Source: Promethearchaeota archaeon (GTDB lineage Archaea; Asgardarchaeota; Lokiarchaeia; Sigyniarchaeales; SOKP01). Taken from it: a stretch of DNA of 11,495 bases. A model generated the notes under the pieces. It was not told the origin of the DNA. It did not search any database and saw only the letters and a program-made list of their open reading frames with translations. The DNA is taken from contig JBHLME010000138.1 in the NCBI GenBank assembly GCA_048938445.1, positions 1-11,495 on the forward strand, read 5' to 3'. Of this stretch, positions 343-11,495 are shown piece by piece; within the stretch, counting starts at the first letter, position 1; each line of letters begins with the position of its first letter. A program made the position numbers and the translations under genes.

Positions 343-597
343 ATGAGTGATGAAAAAAATAATGATGTTGAAATTGTTGAAGAATTAGACACGAGAGGTT
401 TATTTTGTCCTGAACCTCTTTTTGAAACAAGAAATCTATCAGAAACTCTTGAAGCAGGTCAATGTTTTAGGGTCATTGCTGATGATCCTGCTGCTGATGA
501 AGATTTACATCGATGGGCAAAAAGGACTGATACAGAAGTAGTAGAGTTTAGAAAGGATGGAGATGATTTAATTTTCATATTTAGAAAAAAAAAATAA
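343..597 (+). CDS. tusA: TusA/SirA-family sulfur carrier protein
   Basis: LDTRGLFCPEP matches the TusA CPxP motif (Cys codon 406-408), plus ADDPAA..DL..W. The start is moved from TTG 334 to ATG 343 because GAGGT (330-334) lies 8 nt upstream, giving 84 aa. Confidence 0.93.
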   Translation: MSDEKNNDVEIVEELDTRGLFCPEPLFETRNLSETLEAGQCFRVIADDPAADEDLHRWAKRTDTEVVEFRKDGDDLIFIFRKKK

Positions 598-614
598 AAA
601 TGAGATGATAAAAA

Positions 615-971
615 ATGGCAAAAAAATTATTATATGTACAAACGAGTGATAATCCAGAGCGCCAATATTCTCCATTAGTCTTAGCTCAAACAGCAAAAGC
701 CATGGATCTTGAACCTACAGTATATTACTTGGGAACTGCTCTTAGAATTCTAAAACCAGGTGAAGCGGATAATATTAAGTTAGGGAATTTTCCAACCGTG
801 AAAGAAATGATTGATAAAACATTAAGTATGGGTATTGAAATCTTGGTTTGTGAAGCATCTAAGAGGATGCTAGGATGGGAAAAAGTAGAATTAATTTCAG
901 GTGTTAAAATTGTTGGCGCTGCAACCTTAAATGATTTAGTATTGGAATCAGATGGAACCCTATGGTTTTAA
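615..971 (+). CDS. DsrE/DsrF-like sulfur relay protein (COG2044-type)
   Basis: 118 aa with the pattern KLLYVQTS..PER..P, GIEILVCEAS and GVKIVGAATL. The single Cys79 (849-851) is at the position of the DsrE/TusD active Cys78. Confidence 0.85.
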   Translation: MAKKLLYVQTSDNPERQYSPLVLAQTAKAMDLEPTVYYLGTALRILKPGEADNIKLGNFPTVKEMIDKTLSMGIEILVCEASKRMLGWEKVELISGVKIVGAATLNDLVLESDGTLWF

Positions 972-1005
972 AAAGTAATCTGCATTAATAGAGGTAGTGA
1001 AAAAA

Positions 1006-2196
1006 ATGAGCATGTATTTAGACAATCAGGCAGCAAAACCAATGGATCCTCGAGTATTTGAGGCGATGAAACCGTATTTTATGAAAGAATTTGGTAATCC
1101 CTCATCATTGCATCAATATGGTTTTACAGCTACTAACATTTTGGATGAATCCAGGCAAAAAGTAGCAAATTTCATCAATGCCTCTAGTTCTGATAATATT
1201 ATTTTTACTTCGGGAGCAACTGAATCGAATAATTTAGCAATTATCGGAGGAGCTTTACGTAATATAAAAAAAGGAAATCACATGATCATATCGGAAATTG
1301 AACATATATCAATTTTAAACATTGGTAAGTATTTAGAACGTCAAGGTTTCAAGGTGAGTAGGGTTCCTGTAGATAGATTTGGAATTGTTAATCTCAGTAA
1401 GTTAGAGAGATTAATAAATGATAAAACAGTATTAATATCTATTTCTACAGCAAGTAATGAAATAGGTTCCCTTCAACCCGTAGAAGAAATTGCTAAATTA
1501 GCAAATGAGCATAAGATTTGGTTTCACTCTGATGCTGTTGCCAGTGAAGCTACAATCCCTCTTGACGTACAGAAAGTACCTTTTGATCTATTAACTCTAT
1601 CATCCAATGATATTTATGGACCTAAAGGGGTTGGAGCATTATATCTAAAAAAGGGAATAAGAGTAAATCCTATTCTCATTGGAGGGGGACAAGAGAGTGG
1701 GATGAGATCTGGGTCTGAAAATATGCCAGGTATAGTTGGTTTTGCTAAAGCAGCTGAAATTATGAAAGAAGAAATGAAAAATGATGTTTCAAAAATAAAA
1801 CCTCTTAGAGATAAATTAATACAAGAAATTTTAAAAATACCTAAATCATATCTAAATGGACATCCCGAGAAAAGAACACCAGATAATTTAAATGTTAGGT
1901 TTGATTATATCGAGGGAGAATCATTGCTTTTATCATTGAAAGATGAGAATCTTGCTGTGGCATCAGGTTCGGCTTGTAGTTCAAAGACATTAGAACCCTC
2001 TCATACCTTAATGTCTTGTGGTCTTTTGCATGAAGAAGCACATGGGAGCTTACTATTAACATTAGGAAGATTTACAGAAGAGAAGGATATTGATAAAATC
2101 ATAGAAGTTTTACCCGGAATTGTTAAACGGTTGAGAATTTTATCACCACTTACCCCTTCAGATTTATTAAAACAACTTCAAGAGGAGGAAAATTAA
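1006..2196 (+). CDS. iscS: IscS/NifS-like group I cysteine desulfurase homologue lacking the PLP-binding lysine (probably not an active desulfurase)
   Basis: Motifs YLDN, FGNPSS, FTSGATESNN, EH, NEIG, YGPKGVGAL, GGGQE, RSGSEN and ASGSACSS (Cys codon 1975-1977). The canonical SxHK reads SSND (1600-1611). ATG 1006 with GAGGT at 991-995 is preferred over GTG 997. Confidence 0.93.
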   Translation: MSMYLDNQAAKPMDPRVFEAMKPYFMKEFGNPSSLHQYGFTATNILDESRQKVANFINASSSDNIIFTSGATESNNLAIIGGALRNIKKGNHMIISEIEHISILNIGKYLERQGFKVSRVPVDRFGIVNLSKLERLINDKTVLISISTASNEIGSLQPVEEIAKLANEHKIWFHSDAVASEATIPLDVQKVPFDLLTLSSNDIYGPKGVGALYLKKGIRVNPILIGGGQESGMRSGSENMPGIVGFAKAAEIMKEEMKNDVSKIKPLRDKLIQEILKIPKSYLNGHPEKRTPDNLNVRFDYIEGESLLLSLKDENLAVASGSACSSKTLEPSHTLMSCGLLHEEAHGSLLLTLGRFTEEKDIDKIIEVLPGIVKRLRILSPLTPSDLLKQLQEEEN

Positions 2197-2996
2197 TGAG
2201 TGTACATAAATATACTGAAAAAGTGATGGATCACTTTAGGAATCCAAGAAATGTAGGAACAATTGAGAATCCGGATGGTTATGGGAAAGTTGGAAACCCT
2301 GTTTGTGGAGACTTAATGGAAATGTTTCTTAAAATTGGTAAGAATGAAAATGGAGAAGATTTTATTGAAGATATTAAGTTCAGAACCTTTGGATGTGGTT
2401 CTGCAGTATCTACATCATCAATGGTAACTGAAATGGCTAAAGGGATGACACTTGATGAAGCATATAAGATAACTCGAAGTGATGTTGCCGAAGAATTAGA
2501 TGGGCTTCCGCCAATTAAAATGCATTGCTCGAATTTAGCTGCTGATGCGTTGAAGGCTGCAATAAATAATTATCGTGAAGGTACCAAACCAGAAATTGAA
2601 GTGGTAACTTCTTGTCAACTTGAAGTACGAGTTATTTTAGGAGTAGATGAATTCAAAGGTAAAGGAGTATATACGGAAATCCCTAATTTGGAGGAATTGA
2701 GAGAAAAAAGAGCTCTAGTAGTTGATTCCGGAGATGAATCCTTGGAACTAGCCTTAAAATTGACGGAATATACAGGAAGAGTTATATTAATCACATCAGC
2801 AAAAGAGATACCTGGAACTTCGGATATTGCAAAAAAATTAAAACAATCGGATGTAAAAATTTTACATCAATCAGAACTCAATGAAGTGAAAGGAGAATTA
2901 GACGAAGTAGAAAAAGTTATCATCCATGATTTTGATGAGAATGAGAATTATGAACTATTTGTAGATGCCGTAATAATTTTAGATTATAAAAAATAA
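2196..2996 (+). CDS. iscU: IscU/NifU Fe-S scaffold fused to a C-terminal degenerate thioredoxin-reductase-like (NADPH-binding-type) domain
   Basis: Residues 1-128 contain HFRNPRNVG, GNPVC37GD39, FGC67GSA and LPPIKMH110C111. Residues ~146-263 resemble the TrxB middle domain. The start overlaps the iscS stop (TAATG, 2194-2198), with GAGGAGG at 2182-2188. Confidence 0.92.
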   Translation: MSVHKYTEKVMDHFRNPRNVGTIENPDGYGKVGNPVCGDLMEMFLKIGKNENGEDFIEDIKFRTFGCGSAVSTSSMVTEMAKGMTLDEAYKITRSDVAEELDGLPPIKMHCSNLAADALKAAINNYREGTKPEIEVVTSCQLEVRVILGVDEFKGKGVYTEIPNLEELREKRALVVDSGDESLELALKLTEYTGRVILITSAKEIPGTSDIAKKLKQSDVKILHQSELNEVKGELDEVEKVIIHDFDENENYELFVDAVIILDYKK

Positions 2997-3004
2997 TTTT
3001 TTTT
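2997..3004 (+). terminator. Oligo-T tract, candidate archaeal-type terminator after iscU
   Basis: T8 run immediately after the TAA at 2994-2996. Confidence 0.35.
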
Positions 3005-3114
3005 CATACTATTTTTCTATAAAATTTTTAATAATTTGTAAGTTATGGAGCTTATAACACAAATTTATAACTTATAAAAATTAAATTAAAATCAAATTTT
3101 ATATTAAGAGAAAC

Positions 3115-5493
3115 ATGAAACGAGTAATTATTGTTGGTGGAGTAGCCGGAGGAGCTACTGCTGCTGCAAGATTAAGACGCCTTGAAGAAAATATTGAAAT
3201 TATTGTTCTTGAAAAGGGACTATATGTATCTTTTGCTAATTGTGGTCTTCCTTATTTTGTTGGAAATGTGATTAAAGACCGTGAACAATTAGAATTAATG
3301 ACACCTGAAACTTTTTTCAAACGATTCAATATTGATGTTCGGGTGCAACATGAAGCGATTGAAATTAATAAAGAAAATAAAGAAATTACTGTAAAAAACT
3401 GGAAAATGGACAATGAATACACTTTAAATTATGATTATTTAATTCTTTCTCCAGGAGCATCACCAATGATACCACCATTTAAGGGTCTTGATATGGTTCC
3501 TTCGTTTTCTTTACGAACTATTCCTGATTCGGTTAAAATTAGGGAATTCGCAGAAAAAAATAACGTTAAACACGCTACAATCATAGGCGGAGGATATATA
3601 GGTTTAGAAATGGCTGAAAACTTAAAAGAACGTGGTATTAAAGTAAAAATCATTGAAATGCTTGATCAAGTATTAGCACCCCTTGATAAAGAAATCGCTC
3701 AATTTGTGCACCAAGAACTAATTCTTAATTGTGTTTGTCTTCAATTAGGAGATGCTGTCGATTCTTTTGATTGTGAAAATCAATGTAACTACATCATACC
3801 TAAAAGCGGTAAAAAAATAGAAACAGATATGATTATCATATCAATTGGGGTGCAACCAGAAACAATTTTAGCAAAAGAAGCAAGACTTGATTTAGGTCCT
3901 AAAGGACATATTATAGTTAATGATAAGATGCAAACCTCAGATCCATCTATTTATGCTGTAGGAGATGCCATTCAAATAAAAAATTTCATCACTAATGATT
4001 TTACAGCAATACCTTTAGCGGGCCCAGCAAACAAGCAAGGAAGAATAGCTTCGGATAACATTGCAGGTCGAGATTCTAAATATAAAGGGGTTTTAGGAGC
4101 TTCAGTTCTAAAAGTATTTGATTTGACAATAGCATTTGTAGGTTTAAGTGAGAAACAAATAAAAGAAACTCAAATCAATTATGAAAAGATCTACGTGCAT
4201 CCGAATAATCATGCAGGATATTATCCAGGAGCAATCCCCATTACATTAAAATTATTATTTGAAATACCTAGTGGTAAGGTCTTAGGAGCTCAAGCCGTGG
4301 GAGGTCCCGGTACAGAAAAGCGCATTGATGTTATCTCAACTGTTATTAAATTTGGTGGCACTGTTTTTGATTTAGAGGAATTAGAACTAACTTATGCACC
4401 TCCATATGGATCAGCTAAAGATCCTGTTAACATGGCGGGTTTTGTAGCATCTAATGTCCTCAGAGGAGATCATCCAATTTGGCATTGGAATGAGTTAGAA
4501 GAGATAAAAAAAAATAATAGCATTATTATTGACGTGAGAACACCGGAGGAATATCAAGTGGGTACCATTGAAGGAGCAAAAAACATAAATGATTTGGAAC
4601 TGAGAGATAGAATAAACGAAATCCCAAAAAATAAGCACATATATGTCTTTTGCGAGGTAGGTTTTAGGGGATATTTAGCAGCCCGTTTTCTAATGCAAAA
4701 AGGATATGAGGTGAGAAATTTAAGTGGAGGATATAAACTTTATGAAATAGCGAAAGCTACGACAGAAGAAATTGCAGCTGCTTGCGGACCTTCAGAGGAA
4801 ATTATGGAAGAAATGATTGAAACAAAATCCACGGTCTCGGATGAATTTATAGAAGTTGATGCATGTGGATTATCATGTCCTGGTCCTTTAAATGCAATGA
4901 TCAAAAGTCTCGAGTCATTACCAGAAGGAAAGAAATTGAAAATTTACGCAACAGATCCAGGATTTAAAGCTAGTGTGGAAGCGTATGCGGAACTTAATGA
5001 AGCCATAAAATTACTATCTCTTAAAAAAGAGCAAGGAAAATTAGCTGCAGTTTTAGAAAAGGGTGATATAACTGTAGAAGAAGTAAAAGCTCCAGTGCAA
5101 ATTAAAAAGAAAACTAGAAGTGAATCAAGAGATCCTAATGCTCCTCCTCTCTCAGATATTAGTGCAGAGGAATTACACGAACGAATGAATTCAGAAGATG
5201 CCCCCGCAATATTAATTGATGTACGTTCTCCTCAAGAATATTATAGTCCTTCGGGTCATATAAAGAATACTAAATTAATGCCATTAGGAGATTTAATGCA
5301 TAATCTCGAAGCTATCAACGATTATAAGGATAAGGAAGTAGTAATGATATGCCATAGTGGATCGCGTTCCATGATGGCTTCTCAGCTTTTAGCAAGAGCA
5401 GGATTTAAGGACGTGAGAAATTTAACGGGAGGTATGATGATGTGGCATAGAAAGGGTTATCCTATAGAAGGAGTTCCTAAATATCAGTATTAA
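3115..5493 (+). CDS. FAD-dependent CoA-disulfide/persulfide reductase (CoADR/Npsr/CoAPR family) with C-terminal rhodanese, TusA and second rhodanese domains
   Basis: GGVAGG FAD motif, SFANC43GLPY redox Cys, GGGYIGLE NAD(P)H motif, GDA and YAPPYG. Rhodanese 1: IDVRTPEE...FC513EVGFRG. TusA domain: VDAC584GLSC588PGP...TDPGF. Rhodanese 2: IDVRSPQEY..GHI...IC746HSGSRS...NLTGGM..W. Confidence 0.92.
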   Translation: MKRVIIVGGVAGGATAAARLRRLEENIEIIVLEKGLYVSFANCGLPYFVGNVIKDREQLELMTPETFFKRFNIDVRVQHEAIEINKENKEITVKNWKMDNEYTLNYDYLILSPGASPMIPPFKGLDMVPSFSLRTIPDSVKIREFAEKNNVKHATIIGGGYIGLEMAENLKERGIKVKIIEMLDQVLAPLDKEIAQFVHQELILNCVCLQLGDAVDSFDCENQCNYIIPKSGKKIETDMIIISIGVQPETILAKEARLDLGPKGHIIVNDKMQTSDPSIYAVGDAIQIKNFITNDFTAIPLAGPANKQGRIASDNIAGRDSKYKGVLGASVLKVFDLTIAFVGLSEKQIKETQINYEKIYVHPNNHAGYYPGAIPITLKLLFEIPSGKVLGAQAVGGPGTEKRIDVISTVIKFGGTVFDLEELELTYAPPYGSAKDPVNMAGFVASNVLRGDHPIWHWNELEEIKKNNSIIIDVRTPEEYQVGTIEGAKNINDLELRDRINEIPKNKHIYVFCEVGFRGYLAARFLMQKGYEVRNLSGGYKLYEIAKATTEEIAAACGPSEEIMEEMIETKSTVSDEFIEVDACGLSCPGPLNAMIKSLESLPEGKKLKIYATDPGFKASVEAYAELNEAIKLLSLKKEQGKLAAVLEKGDITVEEVKAPVQIKKKTRSESRDPNAPPLSDISAEELHERMNSEDAPAILIDVRSPQEYYSPSGHIKNTKLMPLGDLMHNLEAINDYKDKEVVMICHSGSRSMMASQLLARAGFKDVRNLTGGMMMWHRKGYPIEGVPKYQY

Positions 5494-5524
5494 TTTTTAT
5501 ATGATATAATTTAAAGAATTATAA

Positions 5525-5533
5525 TTTTTTTTT
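5525..5533 (+). terminator. Oligo-T tract, candidate terminator after the reductase gene
   Basis: T9 run about 30 nt after the stop, in the gap between convergent genes. Confidence 0.3.
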
Positions 5534-5590
5534 AAATTAGATTTATAAGATATTAATATTTTTAAAAAGAGCATGAGGATTAAAAATAAT

Positions 5591-6619
5591 CTATTTATAT
5601 TTTGATTTTTCAATATATTTTAAGAGCTTATTATGATATTTTATTTTTCCAATTTTTCCCTTTTTCAAATATTCTTTTTCTATCTTATATTTTTTTTTGT
5701 AATTATCTTCAATCAATGAATGAGTAAGGATTGCAAGCATCATTGATACTTCAGCAAATAAAGTAAACCATTCAGTACTTGTAATTGTAAGTCCGAATTC
5801 CGAGAAACTTTCAGGAAAATATGGAGAAAGAAAAAATAATAAATAAAATATGCACATAATACATGCTAAGAATGCATGAGATCTTGGAACCTTATTATTT
5901 AGATATGATATTAAACCATAAAGAGAAAAAAAAGTTAAACCCCCTAAAAAGTAAAAAATCGCAGCAATAACATGATAAATCCTTAAATTTTCAGGAAAAA
6001 TACCAACCAAAAAAATACCTAAAGTTAAAGCTACATTTGATAATGCCATTAATTTTATTATTTTTTTTTGATTCACCTTTTTTTTCAATTTTTGAATCTC
6101 AAAAACATGGAAAAATAAGATTATACCACTTGAGATGATCCATCCTGTATTAAATACAATATTTGCGCCATTTGGACCGACTCCTAAATCGCTAATAAAA
6201 TTTTGAAAGATTGAATAATTAGGATTTATATTAAGATATAATATTACAGCTGTTAAAGTTGAAATTATAAATAGAATTATACCTATGAATCCAAAAATAT
6301 CACCAGGAATTTTCTCATAAACCTCCTCAAAGAAATGATCAATTTTTTTATCAATTTTAATCAACCAATCATCAATTTCAATTAATAAATTTTCAAATTT
6401 GGCTAATATAGTTAATTCTTCTTTATCATTAGCTCCACTTTTAGACTTATTATCATAATATTTATTTAATTCCTCCCTATTTTCATTAAAATTTTTGAAA
6501 ATTTGTTTTAATTTAAGAGCATCTTCTTCATTTTTTTCTATAATTGCTTGTCGATATCTTAATTCTTTAATTTTGTTTTCTGATTTATTTATTAATTCAT
6601 TATGTTTGCTTTCAGCCAT
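5591..6619 (-). CDS. DUF998/Frag1-like 6-TM membrane protein with an N-terminal coiled-coil region (paralog 1)
   Basis: About 100 aa of charged helical N-terminus, then six hydrophobic segments. Motifs YSIFQNFISDLG, FN.G, GIFPE..HVIAA..F and EW are typical of DUF998. Confidence 0.72.
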   Translation of the reverse strand: MAESKHNELINKSENKIKELRYRQAIIEKNEEDALKLKQIFKNFNENREELNKYYDNKSKSGANDKEELTILAKFENLLIEIDDWLIKIDKKIDHFFEEVYEKIPGDIFGFIGIILFIISTLTAVILYLNINPNYSIFQNFISDLGVGPNGANIVFNTGWIISSGIILFFHVFEIQKLKKKVNQKKIIKLMALSNVALTLGIFLVGIFPENLRIYHVIAAIFYFLGGLTFFSLYGLISYLNNKVPRSHAFLACIMCIFYLLFFLSPYFPESFSEFGLTITSTEWFTLFAEVSMMLAILTHSLIEDNYKKKYKIEKEYLKKGKIGKIKYHNKLLKYIEKSKYK

Positions 6620-6917
6620 TAATTATCACTTAATATTTCAAAGTCCTATACTTTTTTTAAAATTTATATTTTATTCCTTTAAATTAGAAATTATATATAT
6701 TCGCAATTTTATTTGATATTTGTACTCCACAAGAATATAATACACACACCTACTATAAAGAAGTTATAAAATTTAACTATAGGCATATCATTCTATAATT
6801 TTGAATTTTTTCATATTGAAATGGAAAGGGAAATTTTATTTTATACAATATTCGATTTAAATATAATAAAACATATTTGCTTTTAGCAAGTTAATTATTT
6901 AAAGGCAGGAAAAAGTT

Positions 6918-6950
6918 AATATAGGGATAGAAAAAATATAGGATAGAAAA
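6918..6950. repeat. Two-copy imperfect tandem repeat
   Basis: AATATAGGGATAGAAAA (6918-6934) followed by AATATAGGATAGAAAA (6935-6950). Confidence 0.7.
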
Positions 6951-7068
6951 AAGAATTCTTAGGAGGACACTTAAAATATCCTTTTTAATATTTTTTTAAT
7001 AAAAACTATAAGATTCTATTTTCTTAAAGATATTAATTTTTAAATATAATAATTTGATAATGTAGAAG

Positions 7069-7090
7069 AAAAAATATTGATCTATCAATA
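7069..7090 (-). terminator. Hairpin plus U-tract, candidate terminator of the 7106-8122 gene
   Basis: TATTGAT-CT-ATCAATA inverted repeat (7075-7090) 15 nt past the stop, followed on the minus strand by TTTTTTCTTC. Confidence 0.35.
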
Positions 7091-7105
7091 ATATTTATCC
7101 TTACT

Positions 7106-8122
7106 TTATTTCGAGAGGTTAATTTTAATTTTAGGTTTAATAATTCCAAGATCTCTAATATTTTCTCTTTCTTTTTCAAATTTTCTTAAATTAAGGTCTT
7201 CAGCTATAGAATGTCTCAATATTGTAAGCATCATTAATATTTGAGCGATAAAAGTTAACCATTCTAAACTGGTTATAGTTAACCCTATCTCAGAAAATGA
7301 TTCAGGGTAATATGGAGATATAAAAAAAGCAATATGACATGCATATGTAAAATAAGCGATTATAAAGTGAGTAAATGGAATTTCTTTATATAATACTGCT
7401 AATATCGCATAATATGAAAAGAATCCAAAACTACCTAAAAAGTAAAATTCTACGCCAATGACGTGAAACACAAATAAATGTTCCGAAAAAATTGCGACAA
7501 AGCAGATTCCTAATGAAAAGGAGATATTTGATAATGCCATTAATTTAAATATGTAATTTCTATTAATTTTTTTTTTTAATTTTTTAATTTCATAAATATT
7601 AAAAAATAAAAACATCATGCTTGAAATTATCCATCCAGTATTAAATACAATACTTGCTTGAATTGGACCAATACCTAGATCACTAATCCAATTATTAAAG
7701 ATAGAATATTCGGGATCAATATATAGATACAATGCTAATGCTAAAAATGTTGAAAATGCATAAATCATAATTCCTAAAATTCCAAAAAAATATCCCGGGA
7801 TTTTATCATAAACATTTTCAAAGAATTGATTAATTTTTTCATGAATTTTTTTTTCTTTATCAATCTGTTTAGATTTTAATACCTCAAATCTTGAAAAAAC
7901 AGTTGATGCTTCCATATCATCAATTTTACCTTTAAAATGTTTCACATTATAATCATGTAGACTCTCTCTCTTTTCATGAAGTCCCTTTAACAGAAGTTCA
8001 AGTTTGTTAGTATCTTCTTCAACTTTTTCTATAACTATTTGATGATTGCTAGTTTGTTTAGTGCTATCTTGAGATTTATTCATTAAATTCTTGTTATTAC
8101 TTACAGTCATTTTGTTTATCAC
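7106..8122 (-). CDS. DUF998/Frag1-like 6-TM membrane protein with an N-terminal coiled-coil region (paralog 2)
   Basis: Colinear with paralog 1: FFENVYDKIPG, YSIFNNWISDLGIGP, IVFNTGWIISS, KLMALSN and SPYYPESFSEIGLTITSLEW. The start is uncertain (GTG 8122, ATG 8110 or ATG 8083). Confidence 0.72.
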   Translation of the reverse strand: MINKMTVSNNKNLMNKSQDSTKQTSNHQIVIEKVEEDTNKLELLLKGLHEKRESLHDYNVKHFKGKIDDMEASTVFSRFEVLKSKQIDKEKKIHEKINQFFENVYDKIPGYFFGILGIMIYAFSTFLALALYLYIDPEYSIFNNWISDLGIGPIQASIVFNTGWIISSMMFLFFNIYEIKKLKKKINRNYIFKLMALSNISFSLGICFVAIFSEHLFVFHVIGVEFYFLGSFGFFSYYAILAVLYKEIPFTHFIIAYFTYACHIAFFISPYYPESFSEIGLTITSLEWLTFIAQILMMLTILRHSIAEDLNLRKFEKERENIRDLGIIKPKIKINLSK

Positions 8123-8361
8123 GTTTTATAATCGGTTTCTAAGATTTTATAAATTTGTTGTTATGATTCCATTTGAAATTTATTTCAATATTTTTATGAC
8201 TTAAGCTATCAGGATTTTTAATTATAAAATAATTTTATCTTTCTTAATTTTGAAATAATATTTTAATATATATAAATAGTTATATTTCTTTTTTATTCAA
8301 GTAATTTTTTAATGATCAACAAAATTGTTTTTAACTATTTTATAAAATAATTTTTCCCTTA

Positions 8362-9120
8362 TCAGAAAATGTATGGTATGAGCGCTTTTCTCTTTTTTGG
8401 ATAATCTGAAAATGTTTTTAAATACCATATATGGTTGCTTCTTGCCCGAGGAGTAAGATTTGCAAAAGTCCATATTGCAAAAATTAATCCTGGGAGTGAC
8501 CAGGTCATTATTGCCCAGCCAAACCATTCTGTTATCTCACCTAAATAGCTAGGACAACTTACATATTCAAACATCCCCCCATAAGGGATTTTAAAACAAG
8601 TCTCACCAGGTTTTCGTAATTTACGTATAATACGATCAGAAACTAGATGTATAATGAAACCATGAAAAAATAATATGATTCCTATAATAAATGCAGGATT
8701 CAACAACCAACTTGTTTCATAACCTCCAGATAGTGTATTTATCCATCTTCCTTGGAGAAATACATTTATCGAATTGAATATCATCCCAGAAATCACTATA
8801 GACAGTGGCATTGGATTATTACCTCTCATCAATTTCGGAAAAATGAAAGTTCGATAGCTATAATGCATTAAAAATAACGTGGAAAACAAAATTATTACTG
8901 GATAGAAATGATATTTGCCTATAATATAAAGGATTATATATAAAATGATAGCGGGTGATTCCATTAATACCCAACCTGTTTTATCATTGATTGTTTTACC
9001 TGAAGTTTTCATAAAGTGCTGACCATACCCTGCTGTTACTTTAAATAACGAGAAAAAGATAATAATTGCAGGAATAAGTATGAGAATCATTAAACAATTG
9101 AAATAGAATATCTCTTCCAT
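8362..9120 (-). CDS. 3-oxo-5-alpha-steroid 4-dehydrogenase (steroid 5-alpha-reductase, SRD5A1/2/DET2-like), paralog A
   Basis: AGYG, GWVLME54SP, HY87SYR, SD..IR.LRKPGE..FKIP.GG.FEYVSCP.YLGEI.EW.GWA, RA..H.WY and C-terminal YPKKRKALIPYIF. Confidence 0.92.
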   Translation of the reverse strand: MEEIFYFNCLMILILIPAIIIFFSLFKVTAGYGQHFMKTSGKTINDKTGWVLMESPAIILYIILYIIGKYHFYPVIILFSTLFLMHYSYRTFIFPKLMRGNNPMPLSIVISGMIFNSINVFLQGRWINTLSGGYETSWLLNPAFIIGIILFFHGFIIHLVSDRIIRKLRKPGETCFKIPYGGMFEYVSCPSYLGEITEWFGWAIMTWSLPGLIFAIWTFANLTPRARSNHIWYLKTFSDYPKKRKALIPYIF

Positions 9121-9384
9121 TTTTTATAGCACTTAAGTCGTATTAAGGAATATTTATTAAATTTTCGTCTATTTTTTGATTAATACTAATATAATTATAA
9201 TTATTTATTATTACATTTAATCTTAACAAAAAAAGGAATTTTTCATTAAAAAGATGAAAAATTTATGTGATAATATTAGTTGTTTTTTTTATTCTAATTT
9301 ATTATCATAAGTTTTATAGATAGGCTGATATATTGTTATTTAATAGTGAATTCAATTTTTAAAAACATTTTAAAAGGTGAAAAC

Positions 9385-9975
9385 ATGAAAGAAACTCCTA
9401 AAAAGTTATTTACAGCCTATGTGGGGGAATCCCAAGCTAGAAATCGCTATACTTTCTGGGCTAAAATTGCTAAAAAAGAAGGTTATGCTCTAATTTCAAA
9501 CGTCTTTTTAGAAACTGCGGATCAAGAATTACAGCATGGAACATGGTTTTATACAATGCTTCAACAATTTAAAAAAGAAGAGTCTTTCGATGAAATGAAG
9601 GTTTTACCCGACGCAGAATTTCATACAACATTCGGAAACACCATTGAAAATTTAACATCTGCAATCGCAGGAGAAGACATGGAATGGAAAACGCTTTATC
9701 CCGATATTGCTGATACAGCAGATAAAGAAGGATATCCAGATATTGCTACTAGAGTAAGAGCAATTATAAAAGCAGAAAAACATCATTCCGAGAGATATGG
9801 AAAACTCCTAAAATTGGTTGGAGATGACGCATTCTTCAAAAGAGGGAAAAAAATCGTATGGGTTTGCATGGAATGTGGATATGAGGTCGAAATGGACGAA
9901 ATACCAAAAAATTGGAAATGCCCTTCCTGTGACCATCCTAGAGCAAATTTTCGAAAGAAATGCGAAGAATTCTAA
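9385..9975 (+). CDS. rbr: Rubrerythrin
   Basis: AYVGESQARNRY, ETADQELQHG, AIAGE..E...LYP and AEKHH di-iron motifs, plus a C-terminal rubredoxin-like CMEC...CPSC. ATG 9385 has AGGTGA (9375-9380) upstream and is preferred over GTG 9346, giving 196 aa. Confidence 0.95.
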   Translation: MKETPKKLFTAYVGESQARNRYTFWAKIAKKEGYALISNVFLETADQELQHGTWFYTMLQQFKKEESFDEMKVLPDAEFHTTFGNTIENLTSAIAGEDMEWKTLYPDIADTADKEGYPDIATRVRAIIKAEKHHSERYGKLLKLVGDDAFFKRGKKIVWVCMECGYEVEMDEIPKNWKCPSCDHPRANFRKKCEEF

Positions 9976-10154: not shown

Positions 10155-10913
10155 TTAGAAAATAAAAGGAATTAGTGCTTTTCGGTCTTTTGGATAATTA
10201 GAAAATGTCTTTAGGTACCATTTATGATTACTTCTTGCTCGAGGGGCAAGATTGGCGAAAGTCCATATTGCAAAAACCAATCCAGGAAGTGACCAAGTCA
10301 TGATTGCCCACCCAAACCATTCTGTTATTTCGCCAAGATAACTAGGACAACTCACGAATTCAAACAACCCTCCACGAGGGATTTTAAAACCTGTCTCACC
10401 AGTTTTCCGTAAATGCCTTATGATTCGATCTGATGTATAGTGAGTAAAAAAACCCATAAAAAATATTATTATCCCTACAAAGAATATAGGAGATAATAAC
10501 CAACTTATTTCATAACCACCTGATAAAGTATTTATCCACCTTCCTTGAAGGTATGCATTTGCTGTATTGAATAACATCCCCAATATGATAATCGATAATG
10601 GCATCTGATGCTTTCCTCTGATTAATATTGGAAAAATGAACGTTCGATAACTATAATGAAATAAAAATAACGTGGAAAATAAGATCGTTACTGGTTTGAA
10701 ATGATAATCTCCTATAATGTAAAGAATTAAATAAAAAATTACAACAGGAAATTCCATTATTATCCAGCCAGCTTTGTCATTGATAGATTTCCCCCATTTT
10801 CTTGTAGTATGTTGACCATAACCTGCTGGTATTTTAAGTAGCGTTATAAAGACTACTATTGCAATTACAATCATGATTATCATAAACAAGTTGAAGAATA
10901 AAATCTCATCCAT
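10155..10913 (-). CDS. 3-oxo-5-alpha-steroid 4-dehydrogenase (steroid 5-alpha-reductase-like), paralog B
   Basis: Same motifs as paralog A and the same length (252 aa). A manual ungapped count gives about 182/252 (72%) identity. Ends YPKDRKALIPFIF. Confidence 0.92.
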   Translation of the reverse strand: MDEILFFNLFMIIMIVIAIVVFITLLKIPAGYGQHTTRKWGKSINDKAGWIIMEFPVVIFYLILYIIGDYHFKPVTILFSTLFLFHYSYRTFIFPILIRGKHQMPLSIIILGMLFNTANAYLQGRWINTLSGGYEISWLLSPIFFVGIIIFFMGFFTHYTSDRIIRHLRKTGETGFKIPRGGLFEFVSCPSYLGEITEWFGWAIMTWSLPGLVFAIWTFANLAPRARSNHKWYLKTFSNYPKDRKALIPFIF

Positions 10914-11163
10914 TTTTTAGTGCGGATTAGTTGTAGTTTCACATATAGATTCTATAAGAACATTGATAATTTATACTTTTATCAATTTATTTGATTAATC
11001 TTAAGAAATTTCAATAGATTCAATATATACTCTTAGAATCGGAATTTATTAATTTAAACTTACAAATAAAAATGTCTAAAGAGGTTTTAATTTAAAAGAA
11101 CAATTCTTAAATATCATCGCGTTAATTTACACTCAACAAATTCAAGTTATTTGAGTGTTAAAA

Positions 11164-11495
11164 ATGAAACAAAAAGAAATTTATAAATGTAATGTCTGCG
11201 GAAAGATCATTGAGATTTTGAATCCTGGCGCTCCTGAAACCATTTGTTGTGAACAACCAATGCAATTGATGGAAGAACAAACTGCAGATTGGAAAGGAGA
11301 AAAACATGTTCCTAAAATTTCAATTGATGGAAATAATGTAATGGTTGATATTGGTATTTCAATGGGCACTCCACATCCCATGACCGAAGAACATTGGATA
11401 ATGTGGATTGAACTCTTATGTAAGGGTAATTGTTATAAACGTAAGTTTTTAAATCCTGGTGACGAGCCAAAAGCAACTTTTGTTGTCGCCGATAC
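11164..11495 (+). CDS. dfx: Desulfoferrodoxin (2Fe superoxide reductase), 3'-truncated by the window edge; not in the ORF track
   Basis: Manual translation gives MKQKEIYKCNVCGKIIEILNPGAPETICCEQPMQLMEEQTADWKGEKHVPKI...PHPMTEEHWIMWIEL...FLNPGDEPKATF. This has the desulforedoxin CxxC...CC centre and the EKHVP / HPM.EEH SOR centre. Confidence 0.95.
   Translation, partial: MKQKEIYKCNVCGKIIEILNPGAPETICCEQPMQLMEEQTADWKGEKHVPKISIDGNNVMVDIGISMGTPHPMTEEHWIMWIELLCKGNCYKRKFLNPGDEPKATFVVAD

Follow-up and report, generated by a model that had tools for sequence, protein, structure and literature searches.

Where does an iron-sulfur (Fe-S) assembly pair obtain its sulfur when its IscS has lost the catalytic lysine? 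The question is raised by a stretch of 11,495 bases from a Promethearchaeota archaeon (GenBank assembly GCA_048938445.1, contig JBHLME010000138.1), referred to here as the window. The window is one entire contig (C84; ca. 30% G+C) of a genome of 4.63 Mb in 256 contigs, whose closest relatives are metagenome-assembled genomes named Promethearchaeota, Thorarchaeota, and Hermodarchaeota. An initial annotation had described five co-oriented genes at 343-5493 and read them as a cysteine-independent, persulfide-fed system for Fe-S assembly and sulfur relay. All five genes are indeed found there on the + strand, and their arrangement is not due to chance, since it recurs in dozens of genomes. Four of them, coding for the sulfur carrier TusA, a DsrE3-like sulfur carrier, a lysine-less IscS, and an IscU fusion, are a conserved functional unit, referred to below as the cassette. 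The explanation that we consider best, with a probability of roughly 0.5, is that TusA and the DsrE-like protein deliver sulfur to a scaffold made of the catalytically dead IscS and IscU.

The first four genes are closely spaced. The tusA gene (343-597, +; Pfam PF01206, 65.5 bits, cutoff 28.6) starts at the ATG at 343, giving a protein of 84 amino acids (a TTG at 334 would give 87), and is followed after 17 bases by the dsrE3-like gene (615-971, +; 118 amino acids; PF02635, 50.4 bits, and PF13686). About 25 to 34 bases separate the latter from the IscS gene (997-2196, +; PF00266, 259.5 bits), the start of which is likely at 1006 (396 amino acids, as in the database copy P0001) rather than at 997. 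The IscU start codon shares one base with the IscS stop (TAATG, 2194-2198), and iscU (2196-2996, +) encodes a fusion of 266 amino acids, in which a NifU_N domain is combined with a degenerate NAD(P)H-binding domain of the TrxR/FNR type. The fifth gene, coding for a flavoprotein of 792 amino acids with a CoADR-rhodanese-TusA-rhodanese architecture (3115-5493, +; PF07992, PF02852, PF00581), begins after an intergenic gap of 118 bases (2997-3114), where eight T residues immediately 3' of the IscU stop are followed by AT-rich, TATA-like boxes and by an inverted repeat (TAAGTTAT...ATAACTTA, within 3038-3085). This gap is probably a terminator together with a promoter of the CoADR gene's own, and the repeat could be an operator or merely a local promoter consensus. 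Because of the T run and the TATA-like boxes, we read the flavoprotein gene as a probable separate transcription unit, the other four genes probably forming one operon.

The third gene is the one from which the question arises. Judged from its sequence, its product is a member of the type I IscS/NifS fold and family (TIGR03402, 467 bits, and TIGR02006, 418 bits, both under the equivalog cutoffs), and its best match among solved structures is IscS2 of Archaeoglobus fulgidus (4eb5; E value of 3e-145 over residues 7 to 385). Residue-by-residue alignment to 4eb5 confirmed that the protein lacks the catalytic lysine and retains its loop cysteine, as the initial annotation had claimed. The motif SxHK (SGHK) is replaced by SSND (residues 202 to 205), so that Asp occupies the position of the Schiff-base Lys, the stretch SSNDIYGPKG is identical to that of 4eb5, Ala is found in place of Gln after HxDA, and SGSAC is retained in the loop. 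Ser202, Asn204, and the loop Gly-Ser-Ala-Cys327 were invariant in 40 out of 40 lysine-less sequences, with Asp205 nearly invariant, and the loop Cys was present in 104 of 106 lysine-less IscS rows. Among the nearest 120 clusters at 90% identity, SSND was found in 109 and SSNE in 11, and at 50% identity, the nearest 150 representatives comprised 134 with the lysine and 16 without it.

In order to place these sequences, a FastTree phylogeny was built from 290 IscS homologues (loci plus representatives; the A. fulgidus sequence itself is not among the rows). It grouped 98 lysine-less sequences, including that of the window, into one pure clade with a support of 89, and separate losses of the lysine were seen in a second small clade of four sequences and in four singletons. 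The identity between the IscS of the window and those at loci of other Asgard families was 59 to 66%, with no stop codons. The invariance of the replaced residues and of the loop Cys argues therefore for purifying selection and against decay, and the lysine-less IscS appears to be a conserved protein with a changed job. The A. fulgidus protein is described as having bound pyridoxamine phosphate and no desulfurase activity, with its Cys ligating a [2Fe-2S] cluster on IscU in the crystal (PMC8918507), and the lack of activity of IscS of this type is likewise stated in PMC7585200; by analogy, the window's IscS would also have no desulfurase activity. The same 2022 review presents cluster assembly by the A. 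fulgidus pair as an open question, with sulfide as a hypothesized source (PMC8918507).

The evidence that carries our explanation is the company that this IscS keeps. We analyzed the surroundings (±9 kb) of IscS genes from Asgard genomes and from 80 metagenome loci, the latter found with an alignment of SSND-type proteins. Loci were annotated by phmmer with the window's own domains as queries, and linkage was counted at those lysine-less genes for which no fewer than 900 bases of upstream DNA were available; some of the Asgard loci are duplicate records from two retrieval routes (e.g., L013 and L034). TusA was encoded directly upstream, on the same strand, at 72 of 75 loci (34/36 in Asgard genomes and 38/39 in metagenomes). 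Within the Asgard family of the window (f1), the figures were 20/20 for TusA and 10/20 for DsrE, in the other Asgard families, 14/16 and 12/16, and among the metagenome loci, 38/39 and 29/39. The exceptions were L084, with only DsrE, and L093 and L109; a Thermoplasmatales locus, L026 (motif SSSD), is also without both.

As a control, we examined 61 lysine-bearing IscS genes (25 from Asgard genomes and 36 from metagenomes), beside which phmmer detected no adjacent same-strand TusA or DsrE. Because the phmmer queries might be weak, Pfam was also run on the 113 small open reading frames located within 1.5 kb of these 61 genes, and it recovered one TusA (L063, on the opposite strand) and neither DsrE nor rhodanese. 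The bacterial control loci had IscR, IscA, and HscB instead. The association is hence conserved elsewhere, with tusA at 72/75 lysine-less versus 1/61 lysine-bearing loci, and the initial annotation is not refuted by the condition it had set on this point. Of the enrichment that the initial annotation had asked about beside SSND-type IscS genes, the part concerning tusA and dsrE was found; CoADR-rhodanese genes were linked only in the window's own Asgard family.

Two sets of loci deserve separate mention. At L063, a canonical Asgard IscS-IscU pair has nearby a divergent TusA gene (Pfam E value of 1e-17, missed by phmmer) and a ThiS-family gene (8182-8454, +, and 10347-10667, −), a neighborhood that might connect an active IscS with thiocarboxylate chemistry or thiolation. 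In two Asgard genomes, at L053 (G165:C9) and L090 (G004:C1), a lysine-bearing IscS (SGHK and SIHK, respectively) is located 1 to 4 kb from the lysine-less cassette; in L053, the two IscS genes are 3.4 kb apart, and in L090, the lysine-bearing IscS replaces iscU directly behind the lysine-less one.

The cassette is not confined to Asgard archaea. The G+C content of the lysine-less loci ranged from 0.30 to 0.72, and the 90% identity cluster mates of four of them are named as Methanothrix soehngenii, Methanoculleus, Bathyarchaeota, and Actinomycetota. Throughout, the order tusA-(dsrE)-iscS-iscU is fixed across phyla while the flanking genes change. Four high-GC metagenome loci (L129, L143, L144, and L122; 0.68 to 0.72) have the complete cassette, with an IscU fused to the TrxR-like domain, and their IscS sequences nest among those of Asgard archaea; the cluster mates of L144 are named Actinomycetota bacterium. 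This nesting in the FastTree topology therefore suggests transfer of the cassette between domains.

Both putative carriers retain the residues expected for their function. TusA has its active-site Cys25 within GLFCPEP and an ADDPAA motif, and Gly22, Cys25, Pro26, Pro28, and the DDP triplet were invariant in 38/38 cassette sequences; its score against the NCBIfam equivalog NF001423 is below the cutoff (42.7 versus 78 bits). In the DsrE-like protein, Cys79 (within VCEAS) was invariant in 34/34 aligned homologues, and a profile search against solved chains retrieved the DsrE/DsrF-like protein 3mc3 with the carrier Cys aligned (E value of 2.8e-21). This nearest solved relative, reported to be a DsrE3A-type trimer from the archaeon S. 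solfataricus (PMC11094781), makes the protein a putative carrier of the DsrE3 type. According to the same source, the DsrE3 proteins studied are homotrimers to which sulfur binds in sulfane or thiosulfonate form before its transfer to TusA, and DsrE3, TusA, and rhodanese take up sulfur from polysulfide and exchange it without a strict direction (PMC11094781). No DsrE or rhodanese domain was found in this genome outside the window (phmmer with the window's domains as queries, E value of 1e-4). A complex prediction for IscS (alignment of 40 rows) and TusA (38 rows) gave a score of 0.00 (mark, 0.32), which speaks neither for nor against their binding.

The IscU part of the scaffold is likewise well conserved. 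Its NifU_N domain (residues 5 to 129) scored 155.9 bits against PF01592 and 194.2 bits against TIGR03419 (cutoff, 187.9), and Cys37, Asp39, Cys67, His110, and Cys111 were invariant in 33/33 sequences, with LPPIK present. At 266 amino acids, the protein is not single domain as the usual MisU/IscU of 125 to 155 amino acids. A variable linker joins the NifU_N domain to a C-terminal domain at ca. residues 147 to 261, which in the AlphaFold model of the fusion (mean predicted local distance difference test score of 85.1) was matched by Foldseek to the TrxR/FNR NAD(P)H-binding domain of 2zbw and 3f8d (root mean square deviation of 1.7 to 1.8 over ca. 120 columns). This domain has no Cys pair, and presumably its DSGDES occupies the position of the GxGxxA motif of TrxR. 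It is probably a remnant of an NAD(P)H domain that has lost its nucleotide and redox motifs and acts as a docking module. The fusion is characteristic of a single subclade among the lysine-less sequences; a plain IscU of ca. 125 amino acids is found in the others. The linker Cys149 was considered as an additional ligand or acceptor and rejected as a general feature, as it is absent in several Asgard families.

In order to put the cassette into perspective, we compared it with the systems known to use the same protein families. Among them is the A. fulgidus IscS2-IscU pair (4eb5, 4eb7, 4hvk), which has the same SSNDIYGPKG and the loop SACSS; the sole difference between 4r5f and 4eb5 in the aligned stretch is a Lys at the position of the Asp. 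The A. fulgidus IscU chain (4eb5_C) matches residues 6 to 130 of the window's IscU (E value of 1.3e-46), but it has 153 amino acids and so lacks the extra TrxR-like domain of ca. 120 residues. The pair described here is in an operon with tusA and dsrE, while that of A. fulgidus was compared at the protein level. By published description, the same types of gene make up isc1 of Methanosarcina acetivorans, namely, MA0810 (SirA-like), MA0809 (given as DrsE superfamily), MA0808 (IscS1, without the Lys), and MA0807 (IscU1, enlarged to 24.2 kDa) (PMC7585200). In that study, in which an iscSU2 deletion strain was made, the genes beside iscS1 are called “genes of unknown function” and isc1 is not itself studied (PMC7585200).

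The minimal iron-sulfur (MIS) system, MisS-MisU, is likewise an IscS/IscU-type pair of anaerobic archaea without adjacent IscA, HscAB, Fdx, or IscR. According to a 2026 review, it “does not contain additional components,” and the identity of its electron donors is not known (PMC13066941). By comparison, two sulfur carriers constantly accompany the lysine-less branch described here. TusA-DsrE3 pairs are also found in sulfur oxidizers (sHdr; DsrE3A/TusA of Metallosphaera cuprina), where DsrE3 is described as binding sulfur from polysulfide or tetrathionate and passing it to TusA (PMC11094781). The DsrE-like protein of the window is closest to their type, that of 3mc3, but here oxidation machinery of the sHdr, LbpA, or Dsr kind is absent, and the partner is an iron-sulfur scaffold. 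Finally, the IscS-TusA-TusBCD relay of Escherichia coli brings together the same families (IscS, TusA, and a DsrE/TusD-family protein), with TusA and IscU reported to bind competing sites on IscS (PMC13066941). There, sulfur flows out of an active IscS, whereas here the IscS is without the Lys and a single DsrE-like gene takes the place of TusBCD. Neither TusE/DsrC nor MnmA was found in the cassette or in the loci of relatives (no genome-wide search was made for TusE and MnmA). The cassette is not a Tus relay of the E. coli type.

Taken as one iron-sulfur assembly unit, the four genes would work as follows. The lysine-less IscS would be unable to take sulfur from cysteine and would form with IscU a scaffold complex as in A. 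fulgidus, in which the loop Cys would serve as a cluster ligand. The DsrE-like protein and TusA would capture sulfane sulfur as persulfide or thiosulfonate, the source being polysulfide, thiosulfate, low-molecular-weight persulfides, or another enzyme. The carriers would then hand this sulfur to Cys327 of IscS and/or to the cysteines of IscU, where it would be reduced and built into the cluster. In the f1 family, the flavoprotein, rubrerythrin (Rbr), and desulfoferrodoxin (Dfx) would probably act on sulfane sulfur and oxygen species in those same conditions, either controlling or reducing them. We infer in this scheme the transfer from TusA/DsrE to IscS/IscU, the direction of flow, which the initial annotation had suggested to be the reverse of the usual one, the ultimate source of the sulfur, and the role of the flavoprotein.

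Several points weigh against this explanation. Transfer of sulfur, or binding, between TusA/DsrE and IscS/IscU is proposed from gene linkage, and this linkage is not absolute, given that L093, L109, and L026 have no detectable TusA or DsrE nearby and that DsrE is missing in about one-third of the loci. The linkage counts, moreover, are not independent events because nearly all lysine-less genes share one clade and origin; what they reflect is the retention of a single ancient arrangement. If free sulfide were the source, as the literature proposes, no carriers would be needed. The same genome contains a canonical IscS-IscU pair on contig C135 as well as one SufB-like gene, and therefore the cassette is not its only Fe-S route; sulfur from cysteine could still arrive via the canonical IscS.

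A broader version of our explanation can be formulated, which we offer as a tentative one only and regard as rather doubtful in its full extent. Sulfane sulfur would be relayed from DsrE to TusA, to the loop Cys of the lysine-less IscS, and to IscU without any cleavage of the C-S bond of cysteine. Such a relay would be ancient and shared by anaerobic archaea and some bacteria. In Asgard archaea of the Lokiarchaeia type, it would be coupled to an NAD(P)H persulfide reductase (with the rhodanese-TusA-rhodanese tail) giving two electrons per sulfur, the role that ferredoxin has in ISC.

The alternative that survives best, although we judge it somewhat unlikely, keeps the same cassette and the same direction of flow and lets the sulfur come from cysteine: an active desulfurase encoded elsewhere (the canonical IscS on C135 or a SufS-like enzyme) would persulfidate TusA, and the cassette would be a second scaffold. 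The canonical IscS (SGHK, with the loop Cys) and its plain IscU are encoded at C135:31010-32656, and close relatives of this IscS are common in f1, in 119 of 134 genomes, at a cutoff (E value of ≤1e-120) that admits some cross-matches to lysine-less sequences. In five genomes of another Asgard family, in which the only IscS-type gene is lysine-less, we found 8 to 13 matches to the class V aminotransferase family (Aminotran_5) each, several of which outscored the lysine-less IscS itself. The idea that Asgard genomes with a single IscS are free of any desulfurase was therefore rejected, even if these matches are putative. For this reason, the term “cysteine-independent” used in the initial annotation cannot be claimed for the system: given the canonical IscS-IscU pair and the class V matches, an active desulfurase could load TusA. 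The proximity of two IscS genes in G165 (L053) and the established acceptance of sulfur from IscS by TusA in E. coli, as reviewed in PMC13066941, point in the same direction. Three observations nevertheless count against this alternative. The canonical IscS has its own adjacent IscU, and a same-strand TusA was found at none of the 25 canonical Asgard loci; the other class V enzymes are only putative desulfurases; and methanogens, whose donor is discussed in PMC7585200 as being sulfide instead of cysteine, have the cassette as well.

Sulfide leads to the next alternative, which we hold to be unlikely: the lysine-less IscS and IscU would build clusters from free sulfide, and TusA and DsrE would buffer or remove sulfane sulfur or serve thiolated cofactors or tRNA, with the IscS as a mere docking platform. 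Part of this has been published as a hypothesis for the pair of A. fulgidus (PMC8918507), and sulfide is described as usable by both MIS and SMS (PMC13066941). It would also accommodate the lysine-less IscS genes of L026, L093, and L109, which are without TusA and DsrE neighbors, and a detoxification of reactive sulfur has been proposed for the DsrE4 group (PMC11094781). Against it stands the near-universal linkage, in a fixed order across phyla while other neighbors change. In addition, no genes for tRNA thiolation or cofactor synthesis were seen in the cassette, either in the window or in the loci compared, and the DsrE-like protein is closest to 3mc3, a DsrE3-type solved protein and thus of a carrier type.

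The delivery of sulfur by TusA and DsrE leaves the fifth gene to be accounted for. The flavoprotein consists of a CoADR/Npsr-type core (residues 1 to 445, with Cys43), a first rhodanese domain (461 to 543, Cys513), a TusA domain (579 to 649, Cys588 within CPGP), and a second rhodanese domain (ca. 679 to 785, Cys746). By sequence, it is a CoADR-RHD protein, with a single-Cys core and a C-terminal rhodanese carrying an active Cys, although the scores are under the equivalog cutoffs (TIGR03385, 527.4 versus 578.8; NF007123, 403 versus 458; NF010037, 390.9 versus 394). Residues 1 to 548 align end to end with the CoADR-RHD, Npsr, and CoAPR proteins of Bacillus anthracis (3icr; E value of 7.7e-187 over residues 2 to 544), Shewanella (3nta), Enterococcus faecalis (8a56), and A. 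fulgidus (6pfz), with E values from 7.7e-187 to 2.9e-105, and the single redox Cys43 and the rhodanese Cys513 are present. The difference lies in the tail (ca. 572 to 792), i.e., the extra TusA and second rhodanese domains, which are covered by no solved chain. From these homologues, coenzyme A binding and NAD(P)H-dependent reduction of persulfides or polysulfides may be expected; the A. fulgidus Npsr is reported to use NADH for the reduction of both and has been proposed to be protective (PMC7969121). Six cysteines (Cys43, Cys208, Cys513, Cys557, Cys588, and Cys746) were invariant in 112/112 full-length homologues. Two of them come on top of the four expected active-site residues. Cys208 belongs to the NAD domain; Cys557 (AAACG), which could be a further relay station, is found in the linker that precedes the TusA domain.

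The architecture occurs mostly in proteins named as Asgard, and the gene was found no more than 9 kb from the cassette in 15/20 f1 loci and in 0/16 loci of the other Asgard families. Among the metagenome loci, the full fusion was present in 3 of 53 (L118, L121, and L125, all f1-like by the tree), and a plain CoADR was near L103. The distance from iscU to the flavoprotein gene varied from 0.1 to 2.5 kb. The place given to it by the initial annotation as an integral fifth member is thus not borne out. Like Rbr and Dfx, it is a lineage-specific neighbor and not an obligatory part. In relatives, rubrerythrin and then desulfoferrodoxin are encoded directly after the flavoprotein. In the window, rbr (9346-9975, +; NCBIfam NF045767, 207.8 bits, cutoff 200) is displaced by ca. 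3.8 kb, through the insertion of two DUF998 genes and a steroid-5-alpha-reductase-like gene, and dfx (11155-11495, +; PF01880, PF06397; TIGR00320, E value of 2.4e-37) is truncated by the contig end. At the metagenome loci L123, L130, L133, and L140, the arrangement is Rbr-TusA-DsrE-IscS-IscU-Dfx, and such flanking in two different arrangements hints at a shared oxidative-stress context.

These neighbors are the basis of a further alternative, which we find quite improbable as a full account. The whole neighborhood (the cassette, the flavoprotein, Rbr, Dfx, and sometimes HdrD-like and OsmC-like genes) would be an island for oxidative and sulfur stress, functionally akin to SUF when induced by stress and to the reactive-sulfur operons of the CstR type in Firmicutes. 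It presupposes that exposure to oxygen turns sulfide into sulfane sulfur and damages clusters; the island would detoxify, and the lysine-less IscS-IscU would repair or remake clusters. Besides the flanking genes at the four loci just mentioned, 15 of the 20 f1 loci had Rbr and/or Dfx at a distance of up to 9 kb, versus 0/25 canonical Asgard loci. Among 54 lysine-less metagenome genes, a regular-expression count that includes two artifacts gave 8 with Rbr and 7 with Dfx, versus 0/36 for the lysine type. The protective role proposed for Npsr and the OsmC-like genes of some relatives are in agreement with this. Outside f1, however, there is mostly no Rbr, Dfx, or CoADR nearby (present in 1/16 loci of other Asgard families and none in ca. 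45/53 metagenome loci), and no shared regulatory motif could be established upstream of tusA, CoADR, rbr, and dfx. A search for such a motif recovered only recurrent AT-rich 9-mers: TAACTTATA, which is related to the inverted repeat of the window, was upstream of 7/19 CoADR and 5/8 HdrD-like genes in relatives, and 9-mers of the ACTTATAA type were upstream of 8/14 Rbr genes. We claim no regulatory motif because these 9-mers are indistinguishable from promoter boxes. The stress island is in any case compatible with delivery of sulfur by TusA and DsrE and not a strict alternative to it. The last alternative, in which there is no functional link and the lysine-less IscS is a decaying pseudo-enzyme with neighbors present by chance or neutral synteny, gains something from the single origin of the clade, by which the counts are not independent, but is hardly credible in view of the 59 to 66% identity to other Asgard families, the invariant replaced residues, the lack of stop codons, and a four-gene order kept across groups labeled as Asgard archaea, methanogens, Bathyarchaeota, and Actinomycetota while the flanking genes differ.

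Other genes in and around these loci were also recorded. Between iscU and the CoADR gene, 7/20 f1 loci have an HdrD/GlpC-like gene (Fer4_8 with two CCG domains), often on the opposite strand (e.g., L012:9000-10133, −, 377 amino acids), sometimes with an OsmC-like gene also in between. It is absent from the locus studied here, and its orthologue in this genome, which has 28 matches to the family, is at C214:30448-31563 (65% identity). Directly upstream of tusA, 12/20 f1 loci have a gene for a B12-binding corrinoid protein (PF02310, PF02607; e.g., L012:5898-6533 and L013:5866-6501), the orthologue of which in this genome is at C83:38287-38919 and not at a contig end. Within the window, 5591-6619 (−) and 7106-8122 (−) are tandem paralogues (48% identity across 334 aligned residues), both of which combine a long, charged N-terminal region with a membrane domain of the DUF998 type (PF06197; 31.5 bits for one, with a cutoff of 30, and 17.7 bits, below it, for the other). 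Rubrerythrin is flanked by two genes of the steroid-5-alpha-reductase family (8362-9120, −, and 10155-10913, −), 72% identical to each other (PF02544, 176 and 178 bits); this eukaryote-like polyprenol/steroid reductase family is thus duplicated in an Asgard archaeon.

The assembly was compared with four DNA sequencing runs, of which X1 is possibly the source sample. One contig of X1 bridges 2959-7542, the others yielding short pieces. An extra A behind position 2194 was seen in X1 contigs at high depth (317 of 395, versus ca. 19 for the rest). This variant is matched by loci L010 to L023, where 3 bases separate the IscS stop from the IscU start, and probably represents related strains with that spacing.

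In a literature search that did not extend to subscription papers, we found no paper that interprets the linkage of TusA/DsrE to a lysine-less IscS and none that joins CoADR, rhodanese, TusA, and persulfide; PMC6857552 contains nothing about IscS in Asgard archaea. The constant presence of sulfur carriers before the lysine-less IscS provides a testable candidate for the missing sulfur route of Archaeoglobus-type pairs, and one that spans groups labeled as Asgard archaea, methanogens, Bathyarchaeota, and Actinomycetota. The experiments are feasible with existing material, since the cassette is present in M. acetivorans (MA0807-MA0810) and the A. fulgidus pair has been crystallized, and by this means a stated open question about the source of sulfur becomes directly testable. 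If true, a sulfane sulfur relay would answer two questions that the reviews leave open, that of the sulfur source for the Archaeoglobus pair and that of the electron donor for MIS. The link, conserved from methanogens to actinobacteria, suggests an origin for the sulfur of such “dead-enzyme” systems.

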